This document shows positions 5,528 to 62,195 of a stretch of 64,000 nt of DNA, piece by piece. How positions within the stretch are numbered: the stretch's first letter is position 1; each line of letters starts with the position of its first letter. Under the pieces are notes generated by a model, which had not been told where the DNA came from, searched no databases, and worked only from the letters and a program-made list of their open reading frames with translations. This DNA comes from Candidatus Cloacimonadales bacterium (lineage in GTDB: Bacteria > Cloacimonadota > Cloacimonadia > Cloacimonadales > JAFGVF01): the NCBI GenBank assembly GCA_963677815.1, contig OY782499.1, forward strand, positions 536,147 through 600,146. Direction: 5' to 3'. A program made the position numbers and the translations under genes.

Positions 5528-5568
5528 TACTAATAAGCAATTTGACTTTTTGCTCAAGTTTTGCAATA

Positions 5569-5733
5569 ATCCCGAATGGTACAGTAGAGCTTTAGAGAAG
5601 AGTGCAGATTCTTCTAGCAAAATAACTTACATAATTTAGACGCATATAACATATATATTCGGAGAAATTATGGAAGTTCCTTTTGCAGAATAATATAGTG
5701 CTATTCACAAAGGTCTACTGCATTATTTGGGAT
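5569..5733 (+). repeat. R1 repeat, copy 1 (short form, 165 nt): imperfect long palindrome / candidate structured RNA or MITE
   Basis: The ends atcccgaatggtacagtagag ... ctactgcattatttgggat pair. The right two-thirds aligns closely by eye with 39404-39503 and 48365-48459. It lacks the ~30-nt internal hairpin found in copies 2 and 3. Confidence 0.7.
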
Positions 5734-15593: not shown

Positions 15594-15733
15594 CTATGGG
15601 ATGAGACCATCTTTGGTCTCAGGTGGAAGCAGGGATGCTTTCACTACTCCTAACTGGGAAAACGGGTATCTTGCCCGTACCAAGCTTTCCAAGCTTGCTT
15701 TTGTGGAAGCAGGGATGCTTCCACTCCATACAA
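15594..15733 (+). repeat. R2 motif, tandem composite A1 (two-hairpin, 15594-15650) plus A2 (three-hairpin, 15651-15733)
   Basis: Hairpins are tgagacca-tctt-tggtctca, gtggaagca-ggga-tgctttcac, acgggta-tct-tgcccgt, caagc-tttccaa-gcttg and gtggaagca-ggga-tgcttccac. The composite ends in the family tail ccactccatacaa. Confidence 0.75.
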
Positions 15734-15832: not shown

Positions 15833-17458
15833 CTAATTTAACCTACGAGCCAAGCGGAAGCCCAGATAGTTGTAGCAATTAGACGGGTAATAGTAGTTGC
15901 GATAAGCTACCCGGCAGAAGTTAGCAAAGCCGTACCAGCTACCGCCCCGATACACACGGCGATAGCCACTAGCAGGTCCCACCGGATTAGTCTGAGCATT
16001 GGAAGAATAAGATCCATACCAATCATTACACCACTCATAAACATTACCGGACATATCATATATACCTAAACCATTAGGAGCCTTAGTTCCTACATTGTGT
16101 GTCGTGGAACTGGAATTATCATAATACCAAGCCACACTATTAATATCATCAGAACCTGCATAAAGGTAATCTGGATTATAAGTCCCACCTCTGGCTGCAT
16201 ATTCCCATTCTGCTTCTGTTGGTAACCTGTAGCCATTGGCTGAGTAATCACATTCCCAAGTACTAGTATTATAGCATGGTGTTAAACCTTCTTGAATACT
16301 TCTGGCATTACAGTATTCAACTGCATCATACCAGCTTACTTGTTCCACAGGTTTATCTAAACCTGAGAAATAAGAAGGATTAGTCCCCATCACAGCTTGA
16401 TATTCAGCTTGAGTAACTTCATATTTACCTATATAAAACGATGAGAGACTTACTTGGTGGGTTGGGACTTCGTCAGAATCTCCTGTTCCTGTTGTTCTTC
16501 CCATAGTGAAAGTCCCTGCAGGTACTAAAACAAAATTATCTGGTATCGTATATATTTCCTCTTCTACAAAAGCACTTTCAAAATCTTGATAAAAGCTTTT
16601 AACTCGATAAAGGTAAATAGATGATGATTCAATATCGCTATCTTCATACTCTTGAGAATTTGCACCCAAGACTGCATACTCTTCTATCCAGTCTTCATTA
16701 TCCTTTTTCCTTGCTATTTTAAATCCATCTTCACCCTGATTATTGTCTACCCAAGACAAATAAACTGATATAAGAGATGTTTGGACTATTTGTAAATTGC
16801 TTGGTGGTGTGAACTCATTATTAACAGAAGTTTCAATAAAATCTGAGTTTACTGTTTCATAATAACTCATTACTCTGTATACATATTCAGAATTAGGCAG
16901 AATTGAATTATCTTCATACTCTAGAGAATTTTGTTCCAATACAGCATATTCTTCTATCCAGTCGTCAGTATCCTTTTTCCTTGCTATTTTAAAGCCTTCT
17001 TCCCACTGATTATTGTCTTCCCAAGTCAATCGAACTGATGTAGGAGATGTTTGGACTATTTGCAAATTTCTTGGTGGTGAGAACTCAGTATTAATAGTAG
17101 TTTCAATAAACTCTGAGCTTATCTCATCATAACATGCCTTCACCCTATACTTATACTCACTATTAGGTATGATATTGCTATCAATATACTCCGTTAAACT
17201 CTCTGTTACTGTAGCATAATCTACATTCCAATCTTCATTATCCTTTTTTCTTGCGATTTTAAATCCTTCTTCACTCAATGAGTTATCTTGCCAAGTTAAC
17301 CTACATTTATTAACAGCTATTTGTTCAATATTGAGATTAGAAGGTCCTGGTAATGTGTAAGAGGGGTCATAAGGATTCACAAAATCATCATTATCACATG
17401 ACCCTATTATTAAAGCAGTAAGTATTAATATTATTAAATTAATAAGTTTTTTTTGCAT
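15833..17458 (-). CDS. Lipoprotein with three Fn3-like repeats and a C-terminal formylglycine-generating-enzyme (SUMF1/FGE-sulfatase) domain
   Basis: Lipobox IIGSC. There are three ~90-aa repeats (LTWxDNxxxEEGFKIARKKDxxDW...YxYRV). The FGE-type C-terminus includes GNVYEWCNDWY and RVYRGGSW. I moved the start to the ATG at 17458, which has AGGAGG upstream. The track start at 17497 overlaps the upstream gene. Confidence 0.8.
   Translation of the reverse strand: MQKKLINLIILILTALIIGSCDNDDFVNPYDPSYTLPGPSNLNIEQIAVNKCRLTWQDNSLSEEGFKIARKKDNEDWNVDYATVTESLTEYIDSNIIPNSEYKYRVKACYDEISSEFIETTINTEFSPPRNLQIVQTSPTSVRLTWEDNNQWEEGFKIARKKDTDDWIEEYAVLEQNSLEYEDNSILPNSEYVYRVMSYYETVNSDFIETSVNNEFTPPSNLQIVQTSLISVYLSWVDNNQGEDGFKIARKKDNEDWIEEYAVLGANSQEYEDSDIESSSIYLYRVKSFYQDFESAFVEEEIYTIPDNFVLVPAGTFTMGRTTGTGDSDEVPTHQVSLSSFYIGKYEVTQAEYQAVMGTNPSYFSGLDKPVEQVSWYDAVEYCNARSIQEGLTPCYNTSTWECDYSANGYRLPTEAEWEYAARGGTYNPDYLYAGSDDINSVAWYYDNSSSTTHNVGTKAPNGLGIYDMSGNVYEWCNDWYGSYSSNAQTNPVGPASGYRRVYRGGSWYGFANFCRVAYRNYYYPSNCYNYLGFRLARRLN
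16560..17345 (-). repeat. Intragenic tandem repeat, 3 x 270 nt (the Fn3-like modules)
   Basis: cttctatccagtc at 16681 and 16951, and ctacattccaatc at 17221, give an exact 270-nt period. Units 2 and 3 are highly similar at the DNA level. Confidence 0.8.
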
Positions 17459-17466
17459 CTTTCCTC

Positions 17467-19455
17467 CTAATTTCCTGCAATAACAGTTCTTATCCAACTA
17501 TAGAGGGAGTAGATAGCCACTCCTGAAGCTGTATAATAGCTATAATCTCTTATATCTCGCCAAGTTTGAGTTTTATCTTTATAATCTAGGGCATCAACAG
17601 GGTTTGTAGTATTTTCATATTGGTCATAATAGGAATTAGCTATAATGTTAGAAGTTATAGCTCCTCCCAGAATTAAACTAGCTAGACCTGTAGATATCCA
17701 AGCTCTTCTTTTATGTTTATCATAATGATATTGTTTTGAACCTGCATAAGTTTCTAAGGGAATGGTAATCTCCTTGTGTTCATTTTCAGTAACGGTAAGT
17801 TTCCCTTGGTAGTCTAAGAATTGAGGGTGAGTAACCTTGAGGTCATAATCACCATAGAGGAGGGAAAGGAGGGCTGGGCTTTTATTCTCAGCTAAGTCAT
17901 TATCTAGATAAATATTAGCATCATTGACTGCTCGATTATTGTTGTATTTATCAACTGTTAAGAGGGAAACTGAGCCTAGTCTAGCTTGTGGTTCTAAGTT
18001 TATAACTTCTTCAGCTCCTACGATAAGATTAATCTCTTTACTGGCATCGAAATGTTTATCTCTTCTGCCTGTAATCTGGTATTTACCTGGCTCTAGATTG
18101 ATGTCCAAATTATCATTGCCCATTTTGACATCATTCAGATATATATCACATTGAGGAGCAGTAATTTTGAGACTTCCAAAGTTTTGAGTTAGGACATATT
18201 CTTTCTTAATAGTCTCATTAGCTGGGATTACTAATTCTTCTTCTACTGGCAACCATAAGTCTTGGGATATCTTGATAGTGTAAGTTCCTGCCATTAGTTT
18301 TGGGTTATGGTAGGGTAGTTTTCCAATCTCTTCTCCGTTTAGACTTAGTAAAGCATTTGGAGTAGAAAGACAGCTAATAGTAACATCTGAAAAATTGGGA
18401 ATTAAGTCTTGGCTTATATCCACTTCATCTCCATCTTGGATCTCAAAAGATTTTGTGACTTTTTGATAAGTATCTAATTCTAAGCTTAATTGGTGCTGTC
18501 CGCTTTCAAGCCTAGTCTCAAGCAAAGGAGTTTTACCAAGGACTTGGTCATCTAAGATTATTCTAGCACCAGGAGGATTTGACTTGATAGAAATCAATCC
18601 ATACTTAGGTCTAAGTTCATACTTTGCTAATCTCAAGGTCTGGTTTGAGGCAAGATTAAATGTTGCTGTTTCTGGATAAAACAAGTCTTTTTCTATAGTG
18701 ATAGTATATTTTCCAGGGAAATGACTTCCTTGATAAGGAGTTAAACCAACTCTTAATCCGTTAAGGCTAACGCTTGCTTCTTCAGGTTGAGATTCAATAA
18801 TAACTAAGCCAGGAGGGGAGAATTTCTCCTCACTTTCCCCCACTTCTAAAGATATATCAATATTTTTATCTGCTTGGGAAATATCAACTATTTTTGTCAG
18901 GGTCTCAAATCCTTCTTTAGCAAATTTAAACTGATAAGTGCCTTTGGGTAGTTTATATTGAGCATAATTGTTTTTAGCCTTGAAGGGTGCGTTGTTGTCA
19001 TAGGAAACCATCACATTTTCAGTATTTAATTTAAAAGTGATAGTTTTTAAGTCAGAAGTAATATCACGTAAACCTTCCCCCTTCTCATCAAGTGTCATTT
19101 TATATACTTTCCCACTCACTAGAGGATATGGGAAGTCATAACGGTGGTCAGCGAAACCATCTTTAGCAAGGATAATATACTTGGCCCTTTCTTTAAGCAC
19201 CACCCAGTAAGACCCACCTTTATTAATCTGAGATATTTTACTGTTCATGTTTTTAAAAAATACATCTTTTAATCCACAGTTAATAATTACTAGGGCTCCT
19301 AATTTATTTCGATTATCCATTTTTAAATTGTTATCAAGATCATACAAACCCATGTGTAGAGGTTCTTCTTCTAAATCCGATACTATTTCAAACTGAGCTC
19401 CAAAAAGTAGTGTCGCCTGTATAACCAATAAGATAAATATTACAAACTGTTTCAT
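17467..19455 (-). CDS. PEGA-domain repeat protein with signal peptide and C-terminal TM anchor
   Basis: Contains repeated PEGA-like units (e.g. PPGARIILDDQVLGKTP, EEASVSLNGLRVGLTP). It has an N-terminal signal peptide and a C-terminal hydrophobic segment WISTGLASLILGGAITSNIIA. Confidence 0.7.
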   Translation of the reverse strand: MKQFVIFILLVIQATLLFGAQFEIVSDLEEEPLHMGLYDLDNNLKMDNRNKLGALVIINCGLKDVFFKNMNSKISQINKGGSYWVVLKERAKYIILAKDGFADHRYDFPYPLVSGKVYKMTLDEKGEGLRDITSDLKTITFKLNTENVMVSYDNNAPFKAKNNYAQYKLPKGTYQFKFAKEGFETLTKIVDISQADKNIDISLEVGESEEKFSPPGLVIIESQPEEASVSLNGLRVGLTPYQGSHFPGKYTITIEKDLFYPETATFNLASNQTLRLAKYELRPKYGLISIKSNPPGARIILDDQVLGKTPLLETRLESGQHQLSLELDTYQKVTKSFEIQDGDEVDISQDLIPNFSDVTISCLSTPNALLSLNGEEIGKLPYHNPKLMAGTYTIKISQDLWLPVEEELVIPANETIKKEYVLTQNFGSLKITAPQCDIYLNDVKMGNDNLDINLEPGKYQITGRRDKHFDASKEINLIVGAEEVINLEPQARLGSVSLLTVDKYNNNRAVNDANIYLDNDLAENKSPALLSLLYGDYDLKVTHPQFLDYQGKLTVTENEHKEITIPLETYAGSKQYHYDKHKRRAWISTGLASLILGGAITSNIIANSYYDQYENTTNPVDALDYKDKTQTWRDIRDYSYYTASGVAIYSLYSWIRTVIAGN

Positions 19456-19561: not shown

Positions 19562-19639
19562 TTCAATCCTCAAGTTATTCTTTCCAATAGCTTATCTTTA
19601 AATAAGTCGATAAAATTTCACATCTTTACCTTTTCTTGA
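19562..19639 (+). repeat. R3 repeat, copy 1 (78 nt)
   Basis: 70 of 78 positions are identical to 39576-39653 (ttcaatcctcaagtta...atagcttatctttaaa...gtcgataa...tttaccttttcttga). Confidence 0.85.
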
Positions 19640-19768
19640 AATTTTTTCAAGATTGTTTATTGGTAACAAAGCCTCTTCTGTCGGAAGGCCTGTCTTCCCT
19701 AGCTTTAGCGAAGGGAGATGGAGATTCTCTCCGCCATCTGCGTAACCGCGGGCTGAAATCCCAATACC

Positions 19769-19897
19769 CTATGGACTGGCAGCATCTTGCTGCCAGATTA
19801 ACAGGCTTTGTAAGCCTGTTGTGGATGCAAGATGCACCCACTCCATACAATCCTTTCTCTATTTTAAATTTCTTGTTTTTATTTTTACACAGCCTGG
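19769..19897 (+). repeat. R2 motif, copy B (three-hairpin core 19769-19850 plus downstream module tttttacacagcctgg at 19883-19897)
   Basis: The sequence is ctatggactgg, then hp1 ctggcagca-tct-tgctgccag, hp2 acaggc-tttgtaa-gcctgt, hp3 gtggatgca-aga-tgcacccac, then the tail ccactccatacaa. Confidence 0.8.
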
Positions 19898-19934: not shown

Positions 19935-19990
19935 AGATTGTTACTTACTCATTAAATCATTGGCATTTTATCGAGAGAGTAACAATGAAG
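19935..19990 (+). repeat. R4 hairpin repeat, copy 1
   Basis: agattgttacttactc-attaaatcattggcattttatc-gagagagtaacaat aligns with 62114-62174 and with the reverse complement of 48603-48666. Confidence 0.65.
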
Positions 19991-20149
19991 AGACAGGAAA
20001 TAAGGCAAGTGAGTGATACTGAATCAAGCCTTACCCAAGTGAAAAAGCAACTAAAGGTGATTAAATTGCATTCTAGAGATATAATCTTGACATATCATAA
20101 GCTCTAATCTTTCTATTCAGAACATATAAATAAAATAAAGGGGCACAAA

Positions 20150-22903: not shown

Positions 22904-22917
22904 GGCTCAATTTCTAC

Positions 22918-22975
22918 CTATGGACTGAGACCATCTCTGGTCTCAGGTGGAAGTAAGGATACTTCCACTCCATAC
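22918..22975 (+). repeat. R2 motif, copy C (minimal two-hairpin form)
   Basis: The sequence is ctatggact, then hp1 ctgagacca-tctc-tggtctcag, hp3 gtggaagta-agga-tacttccac, then tccatac. tatgga near the 5' end can pair with tccata at the 3' end. Confidence 0.8.
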
Positions 22976-29231: not shown

Positions 29232-29263
29232 CATATAAAAGACCATTAACAAAGTTGTTTTTG

Positions 29264-29356
29264 TCAGGTCCGGTGCAACTTTAACCCTCGAACCATGTCA
29301 GGTCAGGAATGAAGCAGCATTAAGAGGTGCTTAAAGTGTGCAACCGGTAGCCTGGC
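29264..29356 (+). ncRNA. ffs: Signal recognition particle RNA (small, 4.5S-type)
   Basis: Has the conserved domain IV core gtcaggtcaGGAAtgaagcagc (GGAA tetraloop plus the AGCAGC symmetric-loop strand). The 5' gtcaggtccgg pairs with the 3' ccggtagcctggc. A T7 run follows. Confidence 0.8.
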
Positions 29357-29493
29357 TTTTTTTATATCCAATTTTATAAAAACCCACTTATAACAAGATT
29401 ATTCCCAAACACAAGAAAAAAATATCGAAAAAAACTTGCCAAAAAAGCAATTCCTACTAAATTAGTATATAATACTAAATAAAAGGATGAAAG

Positions 29494-37340: not shown

Positions 37341-38191
37341 ATTCGCCCCATGTGCATCTTCTTACGCATAATCTGATAGAAAGTCTTGTTTGATAATTTA
37401 ATAAAATCTACCTTCTTGGTCGCACCATTAATTTTTATGACATCCCCCTCCTCCAAGGAGATAACATTTACCCCATCAACTTGTAGCATTGGTTGGTCAT
37501 GACAAGAAATCAATTCAAATGAAAGTAAATCCTTGGCTGAAAAGACAATTGGCCTAATTGAAAGGATATGAGGATTTAGTGGACAAAAGACTATTGCTTC
37601 CATAAGAGGGTCGAGAATAGGTCCACCTCCAGAAAGAGAATAAGCTGTGGAACCAGTAGGAGTTGAAGCAACTAAGCCATCACATCGAGTAGTATAGATA
37701 AGTCTATTGTTAGTCCTAATTTTTACCTCTATCATCTTGGGAGTGTTCGCTCTAAAGAGAACTGCATCATTTAAGGCTAAATCCCTATATATTAACTTAT
37801 TATCTCTGTACACTTTTATATCAAGCAAGAGACGAGATTGTACTTTATACCTGTTATTAATTAGCAGTTGGATTGACCTTTCTAAAAGCTCAGGTTTGGT
37901 CTCAGAAAGAAATCCTAGTTTACCTATATTAATTCCTAGAAGAGGGGCATTAGTAAGTAAGGCATACTTCTTTGCCCTCAAAATTGTTCCATCGCCACCA
38001 AAAACTAATATTGAATTTAAAGTTATCCCTTTCCCATACTGAAAGGCTTTTACAAAGTCTGGTAGAATATCTAATTGATCATCAAAACCATAAAATTCAA
38101 TATCATAATTATCGTTAAGACTTTTAATAATCTCACTCTGTTTTTGCCTATCATAATATTCTGTATGGATAAAAAGACCAAATTTATTCAT
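37337..38191 (-). CDS. nadK: NAD kinase
   Basis: Has the GGDGT motif (VFGGDGTILRA) and a C-terminal NAD-kinase fold. It overlaps recN by 4 nt. Confidence 0.9.
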   Translation of the reverse strand: MNKFGLFIHTEYYDRQKQSEIIKSLNDNYDIEFYGFDDQLDILPDFVKAFQYGKGITLNSILVFGGDGTILRAKKYALLTNAPLLGINIGKLGFLSETKPELLERSIQLLINNRYKVQSRLLLDIKVYRDNKLIYRDLALNDAVLFRANTPKMIEVKIRTNNRLIYTTRCDGLVASTPTGSTAYSLSGGGPILDPLMEAIVFCPLNPHILSIRPIVFSAKDLLSFELISCHDQPMLQVDGVNVISLEEGDVIKINGATKKVDFIKLSNKTFYQIMRKKMHMGRI

Positions 38192-39257
38192 AATTCACCG
38201 ATTCTATAATCCTTAAATATGATTCATATACCTTTTGGGGTAGTTCCCCTCTTGCAAGAGCATCTAAAACCCCACAATTATCTTCATGGGTGTGGCTACA
38301 ATTGTTAAAATAACAGGCATACCTATCAAAACCTGGAAAGTTATTATAGACTAAACTGACATTATCCCTTTTTAAGGCTAATGTTTTTATACCTGGTGTA
38401 TCTACTATGAAGCCACCAAAATCCCATTCTAATAGTTTTGAATTTGTTGTAGTGTGGCGTCCCTTTTCATTATAATCACTTATCTGCCCAACCTTCAAAT
38501 CTAAACTAGGCATTAAGGCATTTATAACAGAAGATTTACCTACTCCTGACTGTCCAGAGAATACCGATATCTTATTTGTTATTAATTCTTTGAGCTGCTC
38601 AATTCCTTGGCCACTTTCAGCAGAAACAAAAAAGCTTTTATAACCACTTTCAATATAATAGGCTAGCATTTCTTGATAATATTCTAAATCATCAACTAAG
38701 TCTATCTTATTCACACAAATAACCGGTTCTATATTATCAATACCACATTGAATAATAAATCTATCTATAATACCTAACTTTAGCATAGGTTGGACACATG
38801 AAACTGTGATAATAGCATAATCCATGTTACTAGCAATTAGAATTTCTTTTTGATAGGAACCTTCAGAATACCTCATTAGCTTATTTTTTCGATCTATTAA
38901 CTCTTCAATCCTGTAAGGAGAACCTTGAGAAGTATCTATCTTTACCTTATCACCAATTGCCATTACCCGTCTTTGATTGAACATAAACTGCTTAAGACGA
39001 CCACCAAGCAAGGCTGTGACTTCTTGACCATTTAATCTAACCTTAAACATATTGTTGGTCATAATTTCTGTAATAAGACCATCTTCTAGATTTACATCTC
39101 GTTTAAGAGTCTTCTTATTCCTGTTTTGCCCCCTACTTATAGCCTTTTTTTCATGACCATAGTCATAATCTAAAAAATCATCAACATCATCAATATGAAT
39201 ATTTTTTAAATTACGCTCAGTTGACTTAATCCTTACTTTATCTTTTCTTTTATCCAT
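38184..39257 (-). CDS. rsgA: Ribosome small-subunit-dependent GTPase A
   Basis: Shows circularly permuted GTPase order (NKIDL before GQSGVGKSS) and a C-terminal zinc motif CYFNNCSHTHEDNCGV. Confidence 0.9.
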   Translation of the reverse strand: MDKRKDKVRIKSTERNLKNIHIDDVDDFLDYDYGHEKKAISRGQNRNKKTLKRDVNLEDGLITEIMTNNMFKVRLNGQEVTALLGGRLKQFMFNQRRVMAIGDKVKIDTSQGSPYRIEELIDRKNKLMRYSEGSYQKEILIASNMDYAIITVSCVQPMLKLGIIDRFIIQCGIDNIEPVICVNKIDLVDDLEYYQEMLAYYIESGYKSFFVSAESGQGIEQLKELITNKISVFSGQSGVGKSSVINALMPSLDLKVGQISDYNEKGRHTTTNSKLLEWDFGGFIVDTPGIKTLALKRDNVSLVYNNFPGFDRYACYFNNCSHTHEDNCGVLDALARGELPQKVYESYLRIIESVNYE

Positions 39258-39283
39258 TTGTACCCATTTTTTGTTCTTTGTTC

Positions 39284-39503
39284 AACCCAGATGGTGTAGT
39301 AGAACTTTATTAATACTTCGCTAAAGCTACGTATCTCAGGTGAAGAGTGCAGATTATTCTAGCAAAATCCCCTTCTTCGAGGGGGATACAGAGGGTGATT
39401 CCTTAAACTACGCATATAATATATATATTCGGAGAAATTATGGAAGTTACTTTTGCAGAATAATATAGTGCTATTCACAAAGGTCTATTGCATTATTTGG
39501 GTT
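39284..39503 (+). repeat. R1 repeat, copy 2 (long form, 220 nt)
   Basis: The left arm aacccagatggtgtagtagaactttattaata pairs with the right arm tattcacaaaggtctattgcattatttgggtt. Of 32 positions, 24 are Watson-Crick, 5 are G-U/U-G and 3 are mismatches. The left end lies 27 nt from the rsgA start codon. Confidence 0.75.
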
Positions 39504-39575
39504 CAAGTATCAAATCTAATGGTTTTGTTGTAAAGATTTTTTTTAGAAGAGTTTAGTTTGAACATATTGAGAGTG

Positions 39576-39653
39576 TTCAATCCTCAAGTTACTATTTCTA
39601 ATAGCTTATCTTTAAACATGTCGATAATATTGCACATATTTACCTTTTCTTGA
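39576..39653 (+). repeat. R3 repeat, copy 2 (78 nt)
   Basis: About 90% identical to 19562-19639. Confidence 0.85.
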
Positions 39654-40169
39654 CTTTGGTGAAAAATTATGATTAGTAACATATACCCTACATTGGATTG
39701 GATTTCCGATAAGACACATCTTTTTTCAAGTAGCAGGAGTAAATTCATAAAAATCTCGGAGAGATGCAGATATAATAGGCATCCTTCCAGGATTAATGAG
39801 GATATATTTCAATATCCGAAATTTAGACAAGAATGTATTTATAAGTCAATTTGAAAAACTTAGCTATAAACTTAAAAATGTGCATGAATTGCTTTAGTTA
39901 GCACGAGTACATGCTATCTTTCAATTGTTTAGATTGAACAGTCTCAACATATTTACCATGGATTTGTAACCAAGTTATTGATTGTATATCTATTTAAATT
40001 TAAGATCTTAAAGAAGTTCTTGACATAAATTTGCAAATTACATAACTTTGGATTATGATAATTGATGTTGAAAAATAAATTGTCAGAGTATGAAATTTTA
40101 TTAGATTAACCGGTCCAGTTTCATTATAAGCTTTTAGTTTATAAAAAATATAATTAACTAATATATTAA

Positions 40170-41138
40170 ATGGATGTAAAAATGAAGAGACTTCTTCTAA
40201 TGTTATTAATTCTATTTATCATAATTCTACAATTATATGCTGATAGATATGAGTCAGTTCTTGTTGATACAATATACTGTGAACCTAACTCTATGACTGG
40301 GGATATTATTTATAATATGGAGTATAATGATTATTACTATTTCCCCAATGAACCATCCTTAAACATTGCTTATGATCAGAACTCTTTTCTAGGACCAGGT
40401 GTCACTGAATGTAGATCATTTGTTACATTCGAGACTAAACCAGTACCTAATAATTACCTTATATCAAATGTAATACTTCAACTTTACTGTTGGTATTATT
40501 GGGATAATGGGATAGAGTATATATGGCCACACTACTATTCGACCCCCTACACAGTCAATATTGATCATATACAATATGAGACAATAGCTCCTTCTGTTTT
40601 TGATATTGAATCACTTACTTCCAATGTAGGGGTCTTGCAGGACAGTGCTTATGTTGGTTGGGTCTCTTCTCTGGTTTCCGAGAGCTATCTTGACGATATT
40701 GAACAATCACGAGAATATTCGCAGTTTAGGCTGAGATTCCCACCAGGCCATGATATAGTCGGATATTCATCAGATTATGTATATTATGAAAATAACCCAT
40801 CTTCGTTTAGTTCATTTAATCCACACCTAATTGTAACCTACCATAAAACAGTTTCAAATTCTCAAGATGTTGAATCTATACCGAATCAGTTAATCAAACA
40901 AGTTTATCCACAACCTAGTAAAAATAATTTCAATATTGAATTTATGGATAAAGATAATAAACCCATTAATCTGTCTCTTTATGACCTTCGAGGTAGATTA
41001 GTTCACTCTGAAATCAATGTAGCTAAAAAAAATGGAATTGCAAAAATTCCAGTTTTAGATTATCCATCAGGCATATATTTTCTCAAGGTTAAAGCTGACA
41101 AGAAAAGCGAAGTTAGGAAAATAACTATTTTGAAATAA
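40170..41138 (+). CDS. Secreted protein of unknown function with T9SS C-terminal sorting domain (tandem paralog 1)
   Basis: Has a signal peptide and the C-terminal tail YPQPSKNNFNIEF...LSLYDLRGRLV...GIYFLKVK. An alternative start is the ATG at 40182. Confidence 0.7.
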   Translation: MDVKMKRLLLMLLILFIIILQLYADRYESVLVDTIYCEPNSMTGDIIYNMEYNDYYYFPNEPSLNIAYDQNSFLGPGVTECRSFVTFETKPVPNNYLISNVILQLYCWYYWDNGIEYIWPHYYSTPYTVNIDHIQYETIAPSVFDIESLTSNVGVLQDSAYVGWVSSLVSESYLDDIEQSREYSQFRLRFPPGHDIVGYSSDYVYYENNPSSFSSFNPHLIVTYHKTVSNSQDVESIPNQLIKQVYPQPSKNNFNIEFMDKDNKPINLSLYDLRGRLVHSEINVAKKNGIAKIPVLDYPSGIYFLKVKADKKSEVRKITILK

Positions 41139-41162
41139 ATGCCCAAACAAGAGGAGAAAAAG

Positions 41163-42119
41163 ATGAAAATGAAAATCCTTTTATTACTATTTTTAATTCA
41201 CACGATAATACCGATTTATGCTCAAGAAGACGATTCAGTTCTTGTTGATACAATATACTCTGAACCTATACCTATGACTGGGAATATTATCTACAACATG
41301 GAATCTCATGATTATTACCATTACCCCAATATGACATCCTTAATTATTGCATATAATATGAGATTTGATTTACCTGTTGGCATTGAAGAAAGTAGATCGT
41401 TTATTACATTTGATACTAAGCCAGTGCCTAATAATTACATTATAGCAAGTGTAACTCTTCAACTTTATTGTTGTTACTATTGGGATAACAGCATAGATCT
41501 TATATGGCCTCACTACTATTCGACCCCATACTCAGTCATTATTGACCACATCCAATTTGAGACCTTAACTCCTTCCGTTTTTGATCTTGAACCCCTTACA
41601 GCTAATGTGGGGGTCTTGCAGGATAGTGCTTATATTGGTTGGGTCTCCTTTCCGATTACCGAGAGCTATCTTAACGATATTGAACAAACTAGAGAATATT
41701 CGCAGTTTAGGCTGAGATTCCCTCCAGGTCATGATATAGTCGGATATTCATCAGATTATGTTGCATATGCAAATAACCCATCTTCATCTAATTCATTTGA
41801 TCCACACCTAATCGTAACCTACCATAAATCAGTGTCAAATTCTCAAGAGGTTGAACCCTTGCAGACTCAGCTAATCAAACTGATATATCCACAACCTAGT
41901 AAAAATAATTTCAATATTGAATTTATGGATAAAGATAATAAACCCATTAATCTGTCTCTTTATGATCTCCGAGGTAGATTAGTTCACTCTGAAATCAATG
42001 TAGCTAAAAAAAATGGAATTGCAAAAATTCCAACTTTAGATTATCCATCAGGCATATATTTCCTCAAGGTTAAAGATGGAAATAAAAGCGAAGTTAGGAA
42101 AATAACTATTTTGAAATAG
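41163..42119 (+). CDS. Secreted protein of unknown function with T9SS C-terminal sorting domain (tandem paralog 2)
   Basis: I chose the ATG at 41163 (MKMKILLLLFL), which has GAGGAG 6 nt upstream. The track ATG at 41139 directly abuts the paralog-1 stop and lacks an SD. Confidence 0.7.
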   Translation: MKMKILLLLFLIHTIIPIYAQEDDSVLVDTIYSEPIPMTGNIIYNMESHDYYHYPNMTSLIIAYNMRFDLPVGIEESRSFITFDTKPVPNNYIIASVTLQLYCCYYWDNSIDLIWPHYYSTPYSVIIDHIQFETLTPSVFDLEPLTANVGVLQDSAYIGWVSFPITESYLNDIEQTREYSQFRLRFPPGHDIVGYSSDYVAYANNPSSSNSFDPHLIVTYHKSVSNSQEVEPLQTQLIKLIYPQPSKNNFNIEFMDKDNKPINLSLYDLRGRLVHSEINVAKKNGIAKIPTLDYPSGIYFLKVKDGNKSEVRKITILK

Positions 42120-42355
42120 AATAATCTATTTCTTAAGCTACACCATATAGATATTTTAAGAGTAACTTGGAACTTACCTGCTTTAGATATTAAGATGATA
42201 AATTGTTAATAATAACCTAGCCCTTGCTTTTGAGAGATTCAAGATTTTTATATTGACTATCTACAGAATTATTTTTTTATGGTAAAAACTACTAATTATA
42301 ATATTCTATATTAATAAATTATAAAAATAAAAAATTAAAAAGTGATGGAGGAAAT

Positions 42356-43417
42356 ATGAAAACTGGTGGAAACCGTTATGGAACTCACAGAGTAATTGAA
42401 CCTAAGGGTGTTTTACCGCAACCAGCAAGAGTTGTGGATAATGATATGACAGAGATATGGGATAATGAGATGCTTATAGATGTTATAAGATTAAATATTG
42501 ACTCTGCTTCATTTCATCAAATAAAAACCAAATTAGCCAATCAAGGCCATAAAGAAGATTTAGCTCAAGCATTTGCTGATCATGTTATAGATTTAACAGA
42601 AAGAACTGGAAAGCACAAGAATGAAGATACTGGTTCAGGTGGAATGCTAATTGGCAGAATTGCTAAATTAGGACCAAACTTCGAGATGAAAGAAGAGGTA
42701 AAAGAAGGTGATTTAATTGCTTCATTAGTATCTTTATCATTAACTCCTTTAAAAGTTAAACAAGTTAAGAAAGTTATCTTAGAAAAAGACCAAGTAGAGA
42801 TTGAAGGACAAGCTATTCTTTTCTCTTCAGGAATCTATGCAAAACTTCCAGAAGATATGGATATCAACCTTGCTTTATCAGTACTTGATGTAGCTGGTGC
42901 TCCTGCTCAAGCTGAAAGATTAGCTAAAGCTGGTGATACTGTTGTTGTTCTTGGTGCTGGTGGAAAATCAGGTGTATTATGTAATGCAGTTAGCCGTGAA
43001 AGAGTCGGTGTTTCTGGAAAAGTTATCGGTATTGTCCATAATGAACATAGTGTTGAACCAGCTTTAAAATCTGGCTGTAACGAAGTTTATGTTGGTGATG
43101 CAACTAATGCTATCCAAATAGAAGAAATAGTTCATAAAGCTACTGATGGTAAGATGGCTGATTTAGTTATCAACGTAGTTAATGTTGAAAACACAGAGAT
43201 GTCAACTATTATGGCTTGTAAAGATAGAGGAACAGTTTATTTCTTCTCAATGGCTACCTCCTTCACAAAAGCTGCTTTAGGTGCTGAAGGAATCGGTGCT
43301 GACGTTGATATGATCTTAGGTAATGGTTATGCTCATAATCATGCTTTGATTTCAATTGATTTATTAAAACGCAACTCATATTTAATGGAGTTATTCAAAC
43401 AAAGATATACTGATTAA
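42356..43417 (+). CDS. kdd: L-erythro-3,5-diaminohexanoate dehydrogenase
   Basis: The N-terminus NRYGTHRVIEPKGVLPQPA and a Rossmann GAGGKSG motif resemble Kdd. The gene is adjacent to kamA. Confidence 0.7.
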   Translation: MKTGGNRYGTHRVIEPKGVLPQPARVVDNDMTEIWDNEMLIDVIRLNIDSASFHQIKTKLANQGHKEDLAQAFADHVIDLTERTGKHKNEDTGSGGMLIGRIAKLGPNFEMKEEVKEGDLIASLVSLSLTPLKVKQVKKVILEKDQVEIEGQAILFSSGIYAKLPEDMDINLALSVLDVAGAPAQAERLAKAGDTVVVLGAGGKSGVLCNAVSRERVGVSGKVIGIVHNEHSVEPALKSGCNEVYVGDATNAIQIEEIVHKATDGKMADLVINVVNVENTEMSTIMACKDRGTVYFFSMATSFTKAALGAEGIGADVDMILGNGYAHNHALISIDLLKRNSYLMELFKQRYTD

Positions 43418-43431
43418 GCAAGGGAGGATAG

Positions 43432-44676
43432 ATGTCCCAACTTATTGATATTAAAACTATTGCCACTGAAGAAGAATGGAATAGCTGGCACTGGCAATTA
43501 AAAAATAGAGTTACTACATACGAAGATTTAAAGAAATACATAGAACTTACTCCTGAAGAAGAAGAAGTTTTCTCTGGTGGAAACTTCCCTTTCAGAATGG
43601 CTATTACTCCTTATTATCTTTCTATCATTGACCAAAAGAATCCTAATGACCCTGTCAGAATGCAGGCAATTCCGAAGATTCAAGAATCTAAATTAGTTAC
43701 AACAGATATGGATGATCCTCTTCATGAAGATACTGATTCTCCTACTCCTGGATTAACTCATAGATATCCAGACAGAACCTTATTACTTCTAACAGACCAA
43801 TGCTCTATGTATTGCCGTCATTGTACTAGAAGAAGAAAAGCTGGTGAACACGATGCTCCAATGCCAAAGGATAATGTATCAAAAGCTATTGAATACATCA
43901 GAAACACCAAAGAGGTTAGAGATGTTATTCTTTCTGGTGGTGACCCATTAACACTTTCAACAGCCAGATTAGAAGAAGTTATTTCTGAAATCGCAGCTAT
44001 CGACCATGTTGATATCATCAGAATCGGTTCTAGAATCCCAGTAGTACTTCCACAAAGAATTGATGAAGAATTAATCACTATGCTTAAGAAGTATCCTATG
44101 ATTTGGTTAAATACTCATTTCAATCATCCAAATGAAATGACTCCTGAAGCTCAAGCAGCTTTAGCAAAATTAGCAAATGCTGGTGTTGTTCTAGGCAACC
44201 AATCAGTTCTCCTTAAAGGTATTAATGACCATGTTGATGTAATGAAGAAGTTAGTTCATTCTCTTGTCAAGAATAGAGTTAGACCTTACTATATCTACCA
44301 ATGTGATCTTTCTGAAGGTATTTCTCATTTCAGAACCCCTATCTCTAAAGGTATTGAAATTATGGAATCTCTTAGAGGTCATACTTCAGGTTTATGTATC
44401 CCAACCTACGTTGTTGATGCTCCTGGTGGTGGTGGTAAAATACCTGTTCTTCCTAATTACATTGTTTCTCAAATGCCAGGTAGAACTATTCTTCGTAACT
44501 ATGAAGGCTTTATCACAACTTATACTGAACCTGAATATAAGGAACAAAATGACAGCGATTACTGCCAACTAGTTTCTGAAGAAAGAAAATCTACTGAAGG
44601 CCTTATGAGTCTTCTTAGAGGTGATAAAATCTCAATAGGACCTGCTGAAACCAAAAGAAATAAAAGACACAAATAA
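43432..44676 (+). CDS. kamA: Lysine 2,3-aminomutase (radical SAM)
   Basis: Has the radical SAM motif CSMYCRHCTRRR and KamA-type flanking sequence (RMAITPYYLSLI-like, SGGDPL). Confidence 0.92.
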   Translation: MSQLIDIKTIATEEEWNSWHWQLKNRVTTYEDLKKYIELTPEEEEVFSGGNFPFRMAITPYYLSIIDQKNPNDPVRMQAIPKIQESKLVTTDMDDPLHEDTDSPTPGLTHRYPDRTLLLLTDQCSMYCRHCTRRRKAGEHDAPMPKDNVSKAIEYIRNTKEVRDVILSGGDPLTLSTARLEEVISEIAAIDHVDIIRIGSRIPVVLPQRIDEELITMLKKYPMIWLNTHFNHPNEMTPEAQAALAKLANAGVVLGNQSVLLKGINDHVDVMKKLVHSLVKNRVRPYYIYQCDLSEGISHFRTPISKGIEIMESLRGHTSGLCIPTYVVDAPGGGGKIPVLPNYIVSQMPGRTILRNYEGFITTYTEPEYKEQNDSDYCQLVSEERKSTEGLMSLLRGDKISIGPAETKRNKRHK

Positions 44677-45011: not shown

Positions 45012-45078
45012 AAATATAATAGTAAATGAAGAAGTTTATTCTCATCAGTCTTACGACGAAGATGGCGGAGAAAATCTC

Positions 45079-45206
45079 CAGACTGTGTAAAAATGAAAAT
45101 GAGATTTTCAGATGGAGCAAGGGTTGTATGGAGTGGATGCATCTTGCATCTACAACAGGCTCTGAAAGCCTGTTTAATCTGGAGGCAAGATGCCTCCAGT
45201 CCATAG
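45079..45206 (-). repeat. R2 motif, copy D (three-hairpin core 45206-45124 plus downstream module tttttacacagtctgg, read on the minus strand)
   Basis: The minus strand reads ctatggactgg, then hp1 ctggaggca-tct-tgcctccag, hp2 acaggc-tttcaga-gcctgt, hp3 gtagatgca-aga-tgcatccac, then the tail ccactccatacaa. Confidence 0.8.
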
Positions 45207-45436
45207 ATCAACCTTCCCAGTTAGGAAGCATCACTGCTGGCATTCAGACTCTGTGAAACTCTGTGTTAAGGATCTTTCTTCTTTTTAGTGCAATTAGTGT
45301 AATCCGTGGATAGACTATTTCTTTTTACACAGTCTGCTCCACCGTCCGACAGAAGAGAATAATAGGAGACCGGAGTTCCTCAGCTCTAGGCAAAGGACTT
45401 CGGACGAAGCAGACCCACTCTACTTGAAAGAAATCC

Positions 45437-48247
45437 TTATTTCATCAATACCATCTTCCCACTTATAGCCTTACTAGTAGTTTTTATTTTATATAGATAT
45501 ACTCCAGAAGCTACTTTATTACCCTGCTTGTCTCTTCCCGTCCATAGGACTTTTTGTTTACCTGCTAACTGTTCTTCATTAAGCAAAGTCTTTACTAATT
45601 GCCCTTTCAAGTTATAAATATCTACTTTCACTGGTCCAGTTTTTGGTAAATCATAAGAAATAGTAGTTTCAGGATTAAAAGGATTAGGATAATTATAAGT
45701 TGTAAAAGTAAGAGGAACTACTTCATCAGAATTATTTGGGACAAAGTAAGATAAGTCAATTAAATCACAAAAAACTCCTGGATTATTCGATAAATCATTT
45801 TCAATTCTACTAACATAAATACTATTATTATCAATCACACTTATTGCTGGTTTATATTGATATGTGAGATTTAAAGGTAAGGCAAATCCATCTTGAAATT
45901 GGTCTAATTGACCTTGAAAATTAATAGTCCTTAAATACACCCTCTGACTACCTGGAAGCTCTTGAGTATAAGCAAGCACAAATCTATCTTCCAAGGCTTT
46001 AAGAGAAAAGTCACTAACATACTCAGCTAATGTTTCTTGCCACACTTCCTCAAAATTATTATCTAAATTATAGCAGGATATTACTAATTCATCATTATTA
46101 TTATGGAACTTATAAAATCTATTATCAATTACATGGGATTCAATAATGTTATTATTAGTGCAAGGAAAAGTATAGTTAACTGTTTGTGACAAATCATCCA
46201 GATTAATATCAAAGACTTTGTATGTATCATTTGTGGAATATGAGAAGAGTAATCTATTTTGATAAGAAGAGATATTTCTATTTCTCGAAATATAATCATA
46301 ATCATCAGTAAAACTTTGACCTTCAGCAGTCCAACCATTAGCCAGTTCCCCTTCAGCGTCTATCTGAGTAATTTTGAAGTCTCCATTATATCTACTTATA
46401 AGATAATTGTCTTCAACTGCTAATAAGTCTAAATTCTCAATGGGTATATAAGAGATGGCAAGCATATTACCATCTTCAATTTTATTAAAAACATAATCTG
46501 CTCCTCCCCAATCAGAAGTCTTGTAAACAAACCAGCCATTACCCTCTTCAATGTCAGTCAAATAATCATAAGAATAATCTCCACCAAATCCACCGTGGAG
46601 TATCATTGTCTCTATGCTTCCATCTTCCTTGAATAATTTAGCTCTTTGACTTACACTAACTCCTGTACCATAATGATAAATATTATAATAAACTAGATAG
46701 CTATTTTCTGATATTCTATGCAAAGAACTATTTCCACAATCAGTAAGAATATTTTCTAATCCTATTGGCATACCACTTTCATCTACCCCACTCTCCAAAA
46801 AACAGTTCCATGAAAACATTACTGCATTATTATTATCATTCCAAATGAATGAATTGACCTTGTCTATCTCATAAGGAAATGACACAGCTATTTCCTGAGG
46901 ATTTGAAGTTGCATCAGATGCCGATTCATAAGCAATAAAATGTTGTTTATAAGCAGAATAATACCCAAGTCTATGATTAACAATAAAGGAAGCACTTGTA
47001 GCTCCTAGATTAACAAAAAGGGCAGAATCTTCACCACAGTCTCCCGATATATAATCCTCAGCAAAAATCAGAGAGTTATCATTGAGATTATAACTATAAA
47101 AACCTACCTTAACACCATAATTTGCTTGCAAATAGTCTGTTTTACTTACAAGTACAAGCCTATAGTTTTCACCTACTATCTCACTATCTACACTGGTAAT
47201 TTGATCAAAAATATAATTAAATCCATCAAAAATCGAGCCGAATATCTCATAGTGATTAGTTGAATTAATTAAACTTCCATCAATGTTATATTCTCTTAAA
47301 AGAAGAACATCACCTATCGATACAGCTAAAAATTCATTTTCTGAAATTTTTTGTACATCTAGCAAAGGATATTCTAAAGTAGTAGTAGTAAATTCACCAA
47401 GTAGTCGATCATAGATAAAGACGTCAGGATATTGCCCCATAGAACTAAATAAGTTTGCAGAAGCTTCTGTAATTAATCCAAAGAGTACTTTATCATTACT
47501 TAGCTCTAATATCTTGCATGTCTTATATAAATTTTCATCAAAGACACTCGAAACATAAGAGTTGTAATTATCAATCTCATGGTCTGTATTACCTATTCTT
47601 ATGAATAGCTTACTCTCGTCAGGTTGTAACCACATGTAGGTAAGTCCATCACTTGTTATTGCTCCAGTATAAGACACAAGATTTTCACCCTCGGCAATAA
47701 TATTCTGACTTATTATTTGTGGTATATTATTTACAAGATTAATCTTATAATTGGTCAGACAATCATCGTAATCTACCGAGCCATAGTTCACTAGTACATA
47801 GATATCATTTTCATCTTCCAATAACTGAACCTCTTTTAATATTCCATCTGCATACTCAAGTAAGTAAATTTCTAAAGGTAAGTCCCATAAATCTAAACCA
47901 GCACTTGAAATCTTCTTAACCAATAGCCTGTTTCCATCTTCCCAATATATAAAAAAGTTGCCATCTGCACTTCTTTTAATTTCGAATAACCATTCTTCAT
48001 CTATCTGAAAGTTTAAATCAATAGCCTGCTCTAATAATGGGTCTCCAGTTTGAGAATATTTTTCTAATAAGAGTTGATTATTTAAAGTATAAAATATTAT
48101 TGTTCCTTCTGGAATATTTTCTTTATAAACTATTGAACTTTTACTTCTTTGATACATACAAGCAGATTGGTCCCATATAACCTGAGATAATAGACAACTG
48201 ATAGCAGTCAAGAATAGTATAGCAAGTACAAGATTTTTCTTATTCAC
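45437..48247 (-). CDS. Large secreted protein of unknown function with T9SS C-terminal sorting domain
   Basis: Has a signal peptide and the C-terminus NYPNPFNPETTISYDLPKTGPVKVDIYNLKGQLV...GVYLYKI. AGGAGGA sits upstream of the ATG. Confidence 0.75.
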   Translation of the reverse strand: MNKKNLVLAILFLTAISCLLSQVIWDQSACMYQRSKSSIVYKENIPEGTIIFYTLNNQLLLEKYSQTGDPLLEQAIDLNFQIDEEWLFEIKRSADGNFFIYWEDGNRLLVKKISSAGLDLWDLPLEIYLLEYADGILKEVQLLEDENDIYVLVNYGSVDYDDCLTNYKINLVNNIPQIISQNIIAEGENLVSYTGAITSDGLTYMWLQPDESKLFIRIGNTDHEIDNYNSYVSSVFDENLYKTCKILELSNDKVLFGLITEASANLFSSMGQYPDVFIYDRLLGEFTTTTLEYPLLDVQKISENEFLAVSIGDVLLLREYNIDGSLINSTNHYEIFGSIFDGFNYIFDQITSVDSEIVGENYRLVLVSKTDYLQANYGVKVGFYSYNLNDNSLIFAEDYISGDCGEDSALFVNLGATSASFIVNHRLGYYSAYKQHFIAYESASDATSNPQEIAVSFPYEIDKVNSFIWNDNNNAVMFSWNCFLESGVDESGMPIGLENILTDCGNSSLHRISENSYLVYYNIYHYGTGVSVSQRAKLFKEDGSIETMILHGGFGGDYSYDYLTDIEEGNGWFVYKTSDWGGADYVFNKIEDGNMLAISYIPIENLDLLAVEDNYLISRYNGDFKITQIDAEGELANGWTAEGQSFTDDYDYISRNRNISSYQNRLLFSYSTNDTYKVFDINLDDLSQTVNYTFPCTNNNIIESHVIDNRFYKFHNNNDELVISCYNLDNNFEEVWQETLAEYVSDFSLKALEDRFVLAYTQELPGSQRVYLRTINFQGQLDQFQDGFALPLNLTYQYKPAISVIDNNSIYVSRIENDLSNNPGVFCDLIDLSYFVPNNSDEVVPLTFTTYNYPNPFNPETTISYDLPKTGPVKVDIYNLKGQLVKTLLNEEQLAGKQKVLWTGRDKQGNKVASGVYLYKIKTTSKAISGKMVLMK

Positions 48248-48264
48248 TTTATCCTCCTCTGTTT

Positions 48265-48459
48265 AACCCAGATTGTGCAATAGAGCTTTAGTAATACTTC
48301 GCTAAAGCTACGTATCACAGGCGAAGAGTGCATATTCTTTTAGCAAAATAGCTTACAGAATTCCGACGCATATAATATATATATTCGGAAGAATTATGTA
48401 AGTTACTTTTGCAAAAGAATATAGTGCTATTCTCAAAGATCTATTGCATTATTTGGGTT
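48265..48459 (+). repeat. R1 repeat, copy 3 (195 nt)
   Basis: The ends aacccagattgtgcaatagag ... atctattgcattatttgggtt pair. The left end is 18 nt from the start codon at 48247 and abuts its Shine-Dalgarno. Confidence 0.75.
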
Positions 48460-48574: not shown

Positions 48575-48602
48575 GTTTCCTGAAAATTCATAAGCTTACG
48601 GT

Positions 48603-48666
48603 CTCTTGATTGTTACTCTCTCAATAAAAAGCCAATGATTTATAGAGTGATTAACAATCAAGGAAG
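48603..48666 (-). repeat. R4 hairpin repeat, copy 2 (inverted relative to copies 1 and 3)
   Basis: The reverse complement ccttgattgttaatcactctataaatcattggctttttattgagagagtaacaatcaagag aligns with 62114-62174. Confidence 0.7.
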
Positions 48667-49452: not shown

Positions 49453-49948
49453 TAAAAAGGGCTCTCTCCAAAGTAGAGAGGATTCCATGATAGATATTGT
49501 CGTAAAAAGTTAACATGGAGTCTATTTAAGAAAGTCAATACACCTATAATCCTGAAGGGATGTAGATATAATAGGCAGGGTTCGTTAGACCCTGTATATA
49601 TGAAACCTAAACTTATCTGAGCCCTGGAAGGGCACAGGCTGTAGACAAACCCCTTAAATATAAAATATGATAAAAAAACTGATTTTATATGCAAAAAAGA
49701 AGAAGTGTATAAAGTCGCTATATCTTTATCCAAACTCTTCACTGCAATGTATTTAAATACTATTTTGTTCGAGTTTGAATAAATCTATTAGCGATCTCTT
49801 TTTGAAAAAAGAGACCAAAAACTCAGAGAAGTTGACTTTGTCAACACTCTGAGCCCTGGAAGGGCGATAATATAATGAATATTTTGTTGATGTCAAATCC
49901 TCTCTACGTGAGAGCGAACCGAAAAAAGTGTTGATTTTTGTAGACAGT

Positions 49949-62113: not shown

Positions 62114-62174
62114 TCCTCGATTGTTAGTCTCTCAATGAATTATTGGCTTTTTATTGAGAGACTAACAATCAAGA
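62114..62174 (+). repeat. R4 hairpin repeat, copy 3 (between convergent radC and htrA-like genes)
   Basis: An 18-bp perfect stem gattgttagtctctcaat/attgagagactaacaatc with loop gaattattggcttttt. Confidence 0.8.
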
Positions 62175-62195
62175 CACTATAATGATTAATATTAA

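Follow-up and report, generated by a model that had tools for sequence, protein, structure and literature searches.

The intergenic region between rsgA and a type IX secretion cargo gene

The subject of this analysis is a 912-nt gap (39258-40169) in a 64,000-nt stretch of contig OY782499.1 from a Candidatus Cloacimonadales bacterium, which is called the window throughout. The gap is a divergent intergenic region separating rsgA, on the minus strand, from a type IX secretion system (T9SS) cargo gene with a Por_Secre_tail domain, on the plus strand; rsgA is the first gene of an rsgA-nadK-recN...eno block that is conserved in seven related genomes. An earlier annotation made from the letters alone (the sequence-only reading) had described the gap as a 912-bp island free of open reading frames (ORFs), and this holds: the longest internal ORF (39669-39854) has 61 aa and is not conserved, because it spans a junction that is interrupted by an insert of 120-216 nt in six homologous copies. 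We consider it highly probable (about 93%) that the gap is an ordinary divergent promoter spacer of ~306 nt, enlarged by two independently inserted non-autonomous transposons. These are R1, a foldback MITE (short for miniature inverted-repeat transposable element), and a longer element, here called element 2, within which lies the remnant of a third (E3). The features of the locus are given below; names with the prefix L denote loci examined for comparison.

38184-39257, minus strand: rsgA, ribosome small-subunit GTPase, left neighbour (Pfam RsgA_GTPase, E = 1.7e-54)
39258-39280: native spacer part 1, 23 nt directly upstream of the rsgA start codon, collinear with L106, L110, L108 and L113
39281-39285: left 5-bp target-site duplication of R1, TTCAA, identical to 39502-39506
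39286-39501, plus strand: R1, foldback MITE of putative IS1380 type, 216-nt variant, ends CCCAGATGGTGTAGTAGA...TCTATTGCATTATTTGGG, terminal inverted repeats of ~18 nt
39502-39506: right target-site duplication of R1, TTCAA
39507-39560: native spacer part 2, collinear with L106, L110 and L113
39561-39568: left 8-bp target-site duplication of element 2, AACATATT, identical to 39946-39953
39569-39945, plus strand: element 2, 377-nt non-autonomous transposable element, 14-nt inverted ends GAGAGTGTTCAATC / GATTGAACAGTCTC
39752-39794: collapsed E3 foldback remnant, 43 nt, in which the outer 30 nt of the left-hand repeat are joined to the outer 13 nt of the right-hand one
39946-39953: right target-site duplication of element 2, AACATATT
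39954-40169, plus strand: native spacer part 3, 216 nt, promoter and leader region of the cargo gene itself, free of dispersed-repeat matches
40170-41138, plus strand: T9SS cargo gene, 322 aa, right neighbour (Pfam Por_Secre_tail, E = 6.5e-15)

The third part of the native spacer has a repeat depth of 0, shares 87% identity over 230 nt with the cargo-upstream region of L113 and 83.5% with that of L110, and contains TTGCAA-17-TATGAT at 40031-40059. Promoter-like matches facing rsgA in the second part are weak, the one at 39534-39506 on the minus strand (TTTACA-17-GATACT) agreeing at only 9/12 positions. Terminator counts in the gap were not above those of shuffled sequence, and the single terminator-like hairpin is a 25-nt insert within R1. 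An exact-sequence look-up of the RsgA and cargo proteins of the window returned no record.

R1 is a high-copy foldback MITE

The modules that the sequence-only reading had named R1, R3 and X/Y are genuine repeats, far beyond chance, as judged from internal matches and from the 21-mer core of R1, which has three matches in the window where 0.01 would be expected. Positions 39267-39501 match the window at 48248-48457 and 5571-5731, where the other two copies of R1 lie.

5571-5731, plus strand: second window copy of R1, 161-nt main form, between the convergent EF-G and GAPDH genes, duplication ATAAT at 5566/5732
48267-48457, plus strand: third window copy of R1, 191-nt form, duplication TTTAA at 48262/48458

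Target-site duplications are perfect in all three window copies, and that of the third ends 14 nt upstream of the Shine-Dalgarno (SD)/GTG start of the cargo gene at 45437-48247, whose product starts with a signal peptide. Relative to the 161-nt main form, the 216-nt copy in the gap carries an extra 30-nt segment (39311-39340) that contains CTTCGCTAAAGCTACG, as seen in the alignment of the three window copies, together with a 25-nt GC hairpin at about 39370-39394.

In a scan of one genome per species, the R1 core was found in more than 105 tiles of 8 kb, all of them from four metagenome-assembled genomes (MAGs) of Candidatus Cloacimonadota/Cloacimonadales, none of them the source of the window, and at least 183 copies are present in about 765 kb of these four. 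Copies are 85-96% identical across genomes, the coding DNA there being 76-83% identical to the window, and their alignments stop at sharp, recurring boundaries. Across more than 60 copies the termini are the inverted repeats CCCRAATRRTGCARTAGA / TCTAYTGCATTATTTGGG, and in 50 of 67 end pairs the same 5 nt stand on both sides (eight different sequences, mostly TTAAA/TTTAA and including ATTAT), with inverted flanks in one pair of the 67. Three size classes occur, of 161 nt (the main one), 191 nt and about 214 nt, and the 161-nt form folds end to end as one hairpin (-55.1 kcal/mol, z = -7.4).

Scans of viral contigs did not contain the R1 core and gave five matches to the 19-nt inverted-repeat pattern without a paired end, three of them the same sequence, which we treated as chance matches or solo ends. 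The 16-nt CTTCGCTAAAGCTACG recurs in the window at 39316-39331, 48297-48312 and, on the minus strand, 19698-19713; it has 33 matches in the loci examined and occurs 16 times outside R1, in other repeat families. In the short-read MAG JAEKNW01 (L001-L105) many contig ends are no more than about 100 nt away from an R1 core, and R1 is a major cause of the fragmentation of that assembly.

A probable IS1380-family partner of R1

A full-length insertion sequence (IS), probably of the IS1380 family, was recovered whose terminal 15-16 nt are the same as those of R1, and whose duplication also matches in length and target.

L051:2124-3817 (OY829950, about 2,034,124-2,035,817): putative IS1380-family insertion sequence, 1694 bp, with a TTTAA duplication

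Inside it is a 469-aa ORF, its single DDE transposase ORF, which passes the Pfam cutoff for DDE_Tnp_1_4 (E = 7e-26; 90.9 bits against 34.7) and whose best NCBIfam model is the IS1380 transposase NF033539 (E = 1.1e-51, model positions 1-416 of 419). Because the latter match scores 175.8 bits against a cutoff of 180, the protein is taken, by its sequence, to be a divergent member of the IS1380 family. ISEcp1, an IS1380-family member, is known to generate 5-bp duplications at AT-rich targets (PMC2887853). The element of L051 likewise has a 5-bp AT-rich duplication, and R1 has the same ends and a TTAAA-type target, but differs from the family (ISEcp1, IS1380) in having no transposase and only its termini in common with the IS. 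Given the matching termini and duplication and the IS1380-like transposase, R1 can be classed as a MITE of putative IS1380 type; a DDE transposase of this family, acting in trans, most likely moved it, and the element at L051:2124-3817 is its likely autonomous partner.

Element 2 and the nested foldback E3

The left ~90 nt of element 2 correspond to the module previously called R3, and the element contains no conserved ORF. Within the window, 39576-39668 matches 19562-19654; 12-17 matches to the left end were found, six copies from other genomes align along the length of the element in a multiple alignment, and a further copy (L103:779-1372) is flanked by a different perfect 8-bp duplication, AAAGTGAG. 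The palindromic X/Y module is the collapsed E3. Full E3 occupies the same internal position in the element 2 copies of L029, L075, L050, L082, L099 and L102, and its inverted repeats are long and contain the core GGATGCAGATATAATAGGCAG, with 123-216 nt from core to core; its flanks are TA/TTAA-like. Nineteen such cores were counted in 12 loci, and a related copy lies in the window at 49453-49633, where 49548-49577 matches 39752-39781. Two smaller hairpins to which attention had been drawn in the sequence-only reading (ggatat...atatcc and gcatg...catgc) are weak, and other copies of element 2 do not preserve them.

Among the insertion sequence families that duplicate 8 bp, IS6/IS26, IS1595, ISL3, IS256 and IS66 are candidate parents of element 2, which resembles them in its 8-bp duplication and its short terminal inverted repeats. 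The element 2 end GAGACTGTTCAA presumably resembles the IS26 end GGCACTGTTGCAAA.

Empty sites in related genomes

Seven related loci were obtained through RsgA homologs, some of which preserve the spacer as it stands without the insertions. L106, whose RsgA is 96% identical to that of the window, has a single TTCAA (...ttctttgTTCAAgtatcaaatc...) where the window has TTCAA-R1-TTCAA. L110 (86%) is without both elements, and at the site of element 2 shows a single AACTTATT (...gtttgAACTTATTtatcatgg... / ...gtttgAACTTATTtatcatggattt...) where the window has AACATATT-377 nt-AACATATT. Removing both elements in silico, along with one copy of each duplication, leaves a spacer of 306 nt that aligns end to end with the 317-nt rsgA/cargo spacer of L113 at 80.7%, with no gap at the insertion sites; 606 of the 912 nt are thus absent from relatives. 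Because relatives have this site with the MITEs precisely missing, the gap is to be read as selfish DNA rather than as a new regulatory device. Tolerated selfish DNA had been one of several options offered for the gap, and the terminal inverted repeats, target-site duplications and precise empty sites support it strongly.

Spacers of this kind have also been hit elsewhere. An R1 acquired independently lies upstream of rsgA in L111, and the fusA-gap spacer of JAEKNW01 holds an R1 that is oriented opposite to the window's copy and lies at a different distance; the same permissive spacers have therefore taken insertions repeatedly.

What lies upstream of rsgA varies from genome to genome, the site holding nothing, an Exo_endo_phos gene or four different cargo genes across seven related genomes:

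L106: nothing, a gap of about 220 nt
L108: Exo_endo_phos gene
L110: 783-aa cargo gene and a remnant of the small cargo gene
L113: 318-aa cargo gene
L112: 427-aa cargo gene
L111: sigma-factor-like gene
window: duplicated 322/326-aa cargo pair

The two cargo genes of the window pair (40170-41138 and 41139-42119) are a head-to-tail tandem duplicate with 73-84% nucleotide identity and a spacing of 981 nt; in L113 the small cargo gene is present as the single 318-aa copy, and the remnant in L110 fuses its promoter to the tail that codes for the C-terminal domain. In addition, the cargo gene at 45437-48247 and both islands that flank it are absent from L106, the closest relative. The view that such islands mark hot spots of gene gain and loss is in this respect backed by synteny. 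At the corresponding junction, in the LAM-pirin spacer (L106:4202-4460), a truncated left end of R1 preceded by TTAA is retained, which hints at a deletion through or beside a MITE. The breakpoints of the cargo-pair indel (39545-42199 relative to L106) contain no repeat.

Dispersed repeats beside cargo genes

The sequence-only reading had listed six ORF-poor gaps in the window, four of them flanking four genes with Por/T9SS C-terminal domains. All six exist and all four cargo genes (20150, 40170, 41139 and 45437) were confirmed by Pfam, but the pairing is incomplete, only three of the four genes being flanked: the gene at 41139, whose start is the ATG there and not at 41163 as first given, is adjoined by its paralog on one side, and the gap of 236 nt on its other side is ordinary and free of repeats. 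The list had also missed the 264-nt EF-G/GAPDH gap that bears the R1 copy at 5571-5731. Dispersed repeats occur in all six listed gaps, at 108-625 nt each, and after their subtraction the islands measure 164-426 nt, which is close to the 100-318 nt of the repeat-free spacers of the window.

The proposed association of repeats with cargo genes was examined by calling ORFs in the 105 tiles and the window (647 genes, 493 gaps); the tiles were chosen for containing R1, and the sample is therefore not an unbiased genome-wide one. Cargo genes, 39 in total, were taken with a hidden Markov model of the C-terminal domain that recovered exactly the four Pfam-verified genes of the window. Counts for cargo-adjacent versus other gaps, with odds ratios (OR), were as follows:

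R1 present, all gaps: 17/48 versus 62/445, OR 3.4, p = 5.5e-4
R1 present, non-R1 spacer of 100 nt or more: 15/35 versus 55/167, OR 1.5, p = 0.33
Any dispersed repeat, all gaps: 25/48 versus 105/445, OR 3.5, p = 9e-5
Any dispersed repeat, native spacer of at least 100 nt: 21/33 versus 66/137, OR 1.9, p = 0.12
Any repeat, gaps of 90 nt or more in the window: 5/6 versus 4/13, OR 11, p = 0.057

The association thus stands in raw counts, and at controlled spacer length it falls to a non-significant OR of 1.5-1.9. The native, repeat-subtracted spacer has a median of 177 nt beside cargo genes versus 26 nt elsewhere (p = 4e-7). The clustering is real, and for the most part it can be put down to the position of cargo genes as stand-alone units with long native spacers on either side, most other genes lying in operons.

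Proposed explanation and its alternatives

On the reading preferred here, the ~306-nt spacer between rsgA and the cargo gene would have received R1, a foldback MITE of ~160-220 nt, through an IS1380-family transposase that duplicated 5 bp at an AT-rich, TTAAA-like target. Element 2 would have inserted separately with an 8-bp duplication; before its amplification it had probably been invaded by E3, which in this copy would since have collapsed to the 43-nt palindrome. The other five islands of the window are most likely of the same kind, normal spacers of 164-426 nt padded by several dispersed repeat families. Such elements would survive only at harmless sites, that is, in real inter-operon spacers, and cargo genes, often gained and lost, would collect more insertions because they are stand-alone, with spacers on both sides. 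We infer that the insertions have been near-neutral.

Several observations weigh against this explanation. The two start-facing R1 copies of the window lie unusually close to the starts, 23 nt from that of rsgA and 14 nt from that of the cargo gene at 45437-48247, in a family whose overall median distance is about 180 nt; since at these distances they lie in or directly beside the leaders, a side-effect on expression, for example through cleavage of the hairpin by RNase III, is possible. A small residual enrichment beside cargo genes may persist after control for spacer length (OR 1.9, p = 0.12; window p = 0.057). The evidence for the R1 partner consists of one full-length IS, located in a genome other than that of the window and sharing the terminal 15-16 nt alone with R1, and its transposase scores just under the curated NCBIfam cutoff. 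No autonomous parent with the ends of element 2 or E3 was found: the conserved segment at the left end of element 2 had 0 matches in metagenome scans, clustering of all ORFs of the loci examined for multi-copy transposases returned orthologs only, and a search for widely spaced element 2 ends flanked by duplications gave only non-autonomous sizes (70-594 nt).

The closeness of two R1 copies to gene starts is also a point in favour of regarding R1 and element 2 as exapted, Correia-like modules that tune the cargo genes and rsgA as outward promoters, protein-binding sites or RNase-processed leaders. The strong R1 hairpin would be a plausible RNase III substrate, as RNase III processing has been reported for the hairpins of Correia elements (PMC10969869), and the left end of element 2 includes a conserved block containing TTGACA. 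We nevertheless regard such a role as quite unlikely, for R1 ends facing gene starts divide evenly by orientation (66 vs 66; starts vs stops 132 vs 145), and nearly so do those of the long subclass that carries the CTTCGCTAAAGCTACG segment and includes both start-proximal window copies (6 vs 8), and only 10 of the 132 start-facing copies lie 40 nt or less from the start. Moreover, relatives, as their empty sites indicate, express these genes in the absence of the elements, one window copy lies between convergent housekeeping genes, and a promoter scan of the gap gave 12 matches against 7.9 +/- 2.4 in shuffles, which is not above expectation. Two narrower forms of the idea were rejected: R1 as a duplicated promoter or 5' leader of rsgA and the cargo gene, on account of the convergent-gene copy, the random orientation over 183 copies and the empty sites; and the extra 30-nt segment of long R1 as a promoter cassette, on account of its 6:8 orientation.

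A different role, in which MITE-rich spacers drive the turnover of T9SS cargo genes as recombination substrates or as the ends of composite transposons, would accord with the differing cargo content upstream of rsgA in seven genomes, with the loss of the 45437-48247 gene and its repeat-laden flanks from L106 at a junction holding a truncated R1 end, and with the raw enrichment of repeats beside cargo genes (OR 3.5, p = 9e-5). We hold it to be unlikely. The cargo-pair indel has repeat-free breakpoints, the enrichment is mostly gone at controlled spacer length, and a correlation with variable loci is also expected from better survival of MITEs under low constraint; the window cargo genes are not bounded by one family on both sides, and cargo cassettes as composite transposons bounded by one MITE were rejected since the flanking families differ. 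A combined view, that R1, element 2 and E3 speed the gain, loss and duplication of cargo genes by recombination while R1 copies within 25 nt of start codons put a strong hairpin into the 5' UTR and so modulate the expression of rsgA and 45437-48247, is likewise unlikely; if it were true, these elements would shape the secreted-protein repertoire of the uncultured phylum Cloacimonadota.

That the gap encodes small RNAs, or a cis-regulatory leader of the cargo gene such as a riboswitch or attenuator, is very improbable. A long ORF-free region with predicted secondary structure and good conservation of its last 216 nt with L113 and L110 might suggest as much; however, the structured parts are transposon foldbacks, 606 of the 912 nt are absent in relatives, the conserved 216 nt have the size of an ordinary promoter and leader, and a sensitive-mode search of the gap against Rfam 15 with E up to 10 allowed gave only two snoRNA-model matches (E > 6), spurious and far under the gathering threshold. 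Scarcely credible, finally, is a phase-variation switch, with an invertible promoter between inverted repeats controlling surface or secreted cargo genes. Inverted repeats are present, the neighbour is a secreted or surface protein and inversion of Correia elements has been reported in Neisseria (PMC10969869), but these inverted repeats are the termini of transposons with target-site duplications that are absent in relatives, no recombinase or invertase occurs among the neighbours (rsgA, nadK, recN, cargo genes and lysine-fermentation genes), and no alternative orientation was seen among the seven related loci. The suggestion of long leaders or phase variation in the sequence-only reading consequently finds no support, there being no Rfam match, no orientation bias of R1 and, in relatives, no need of the elements.

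Other repeats and features of the window

The window has a GC content of ~32% and no tRNA genes, and Rfam finds in it the signal recognition particle (SRP) RNA alone. Beyond the families described above, the following features were observed:

22916-22974, 15594-15651 and 15703-15731: double-hairpin unit of ~59 nt, resembling repetitive extragenic palindromes (REP-like), in spacers; a tandem array with a 68-nt period occurs at L071:3962-4295
45365-45408: 44 nt just downstream of the cargo stop codon, matching eight units of a 60-nt-period array in an ORF of L110 (L110:14586-15049)
48596-48664, 62114-62182 and 19936-19999: three copies of a 69-nt palindromic element
19719-19897 and 45056-45206: element of ~180 nt, inverted between two islands
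29262-29360, plus strand: small SRP RNA (Rfam RF00169, 75.5 bits), which accounts for the 262-nt gap 29232-29493
16639-17295: 270-nt tandem repeat, in frame, with about 2.3-3 units at 78-90% identity, in the minus-strand gene 15833-17497, which encodes an fn3 and FGE-sulfatase protein
13962-15524, 42356-43417 and 43432-44676: lysine-fermentation genes, respectively D-lysine 5,6-aminomutase alpha, a KDD-like dehydrogenase and lysine 2,3-aminomutase

The lysine-fermentation genes fit the proposed amino-acid-fermenting lifestyle of Cloacimonadota.

Significance and comparison with known systems

These MITE families account for the long 'empty' spacers of Cloacimonadota, and their main value is for annotation and assembly, as they break short-read MAG assemblies and could be misread as regulatory RNAs or leaders. 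They also provide a clean link between a MITE and a probable IS1380-type partner in an uncultured phylum, and could serve as markers of recent mobility and for strain differentiation. The turnover, from one close relative to another, of T9SS cargo genes that adjoin a conserved housekeeping operon is a modest but useful pointer for pangenome work.

MITEs known from prokaryotes include the Correia/NEMIS elements of Neisseria, ERIC, RUP, MITEAba12 and the BrickBuilt elements of P. gingivalis (PMC10969869; PMC11602168); they are widespread and about 90% intergenic (PMC11602168). Neither of these two sources mentions Cloacimonadota or IS1380-derived MITEs, and the R1, element 2 and E3 families appear not to be described in PMC10969869, PMC11602168 or Rfam. 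Their sequences are unrelated to any named family that could be compared, and R1 differs from Correia elements in showing no sign of promoter function or orientation preference. In their general build, R1 and element 2 closely resemble known prokaryotic MITEs: both are small (161-377 nt) and ORF-less, with terminal inverted repeats, target-site duplications and a foldback structure, both are present in high copy number, almost exclusively in intergenic regions, where they nest and cluster, and both are polymorphic for presence or absence between related genomes. R1 has all the defining features of a MITE, and element 2 has them likewise except for an identified autonomous parent. The families are new, of a well-known kind, and the mechanism by which they enlarge the rsgA/cargo spacer is the ordinary one of such elements, revealing no new mechanism.

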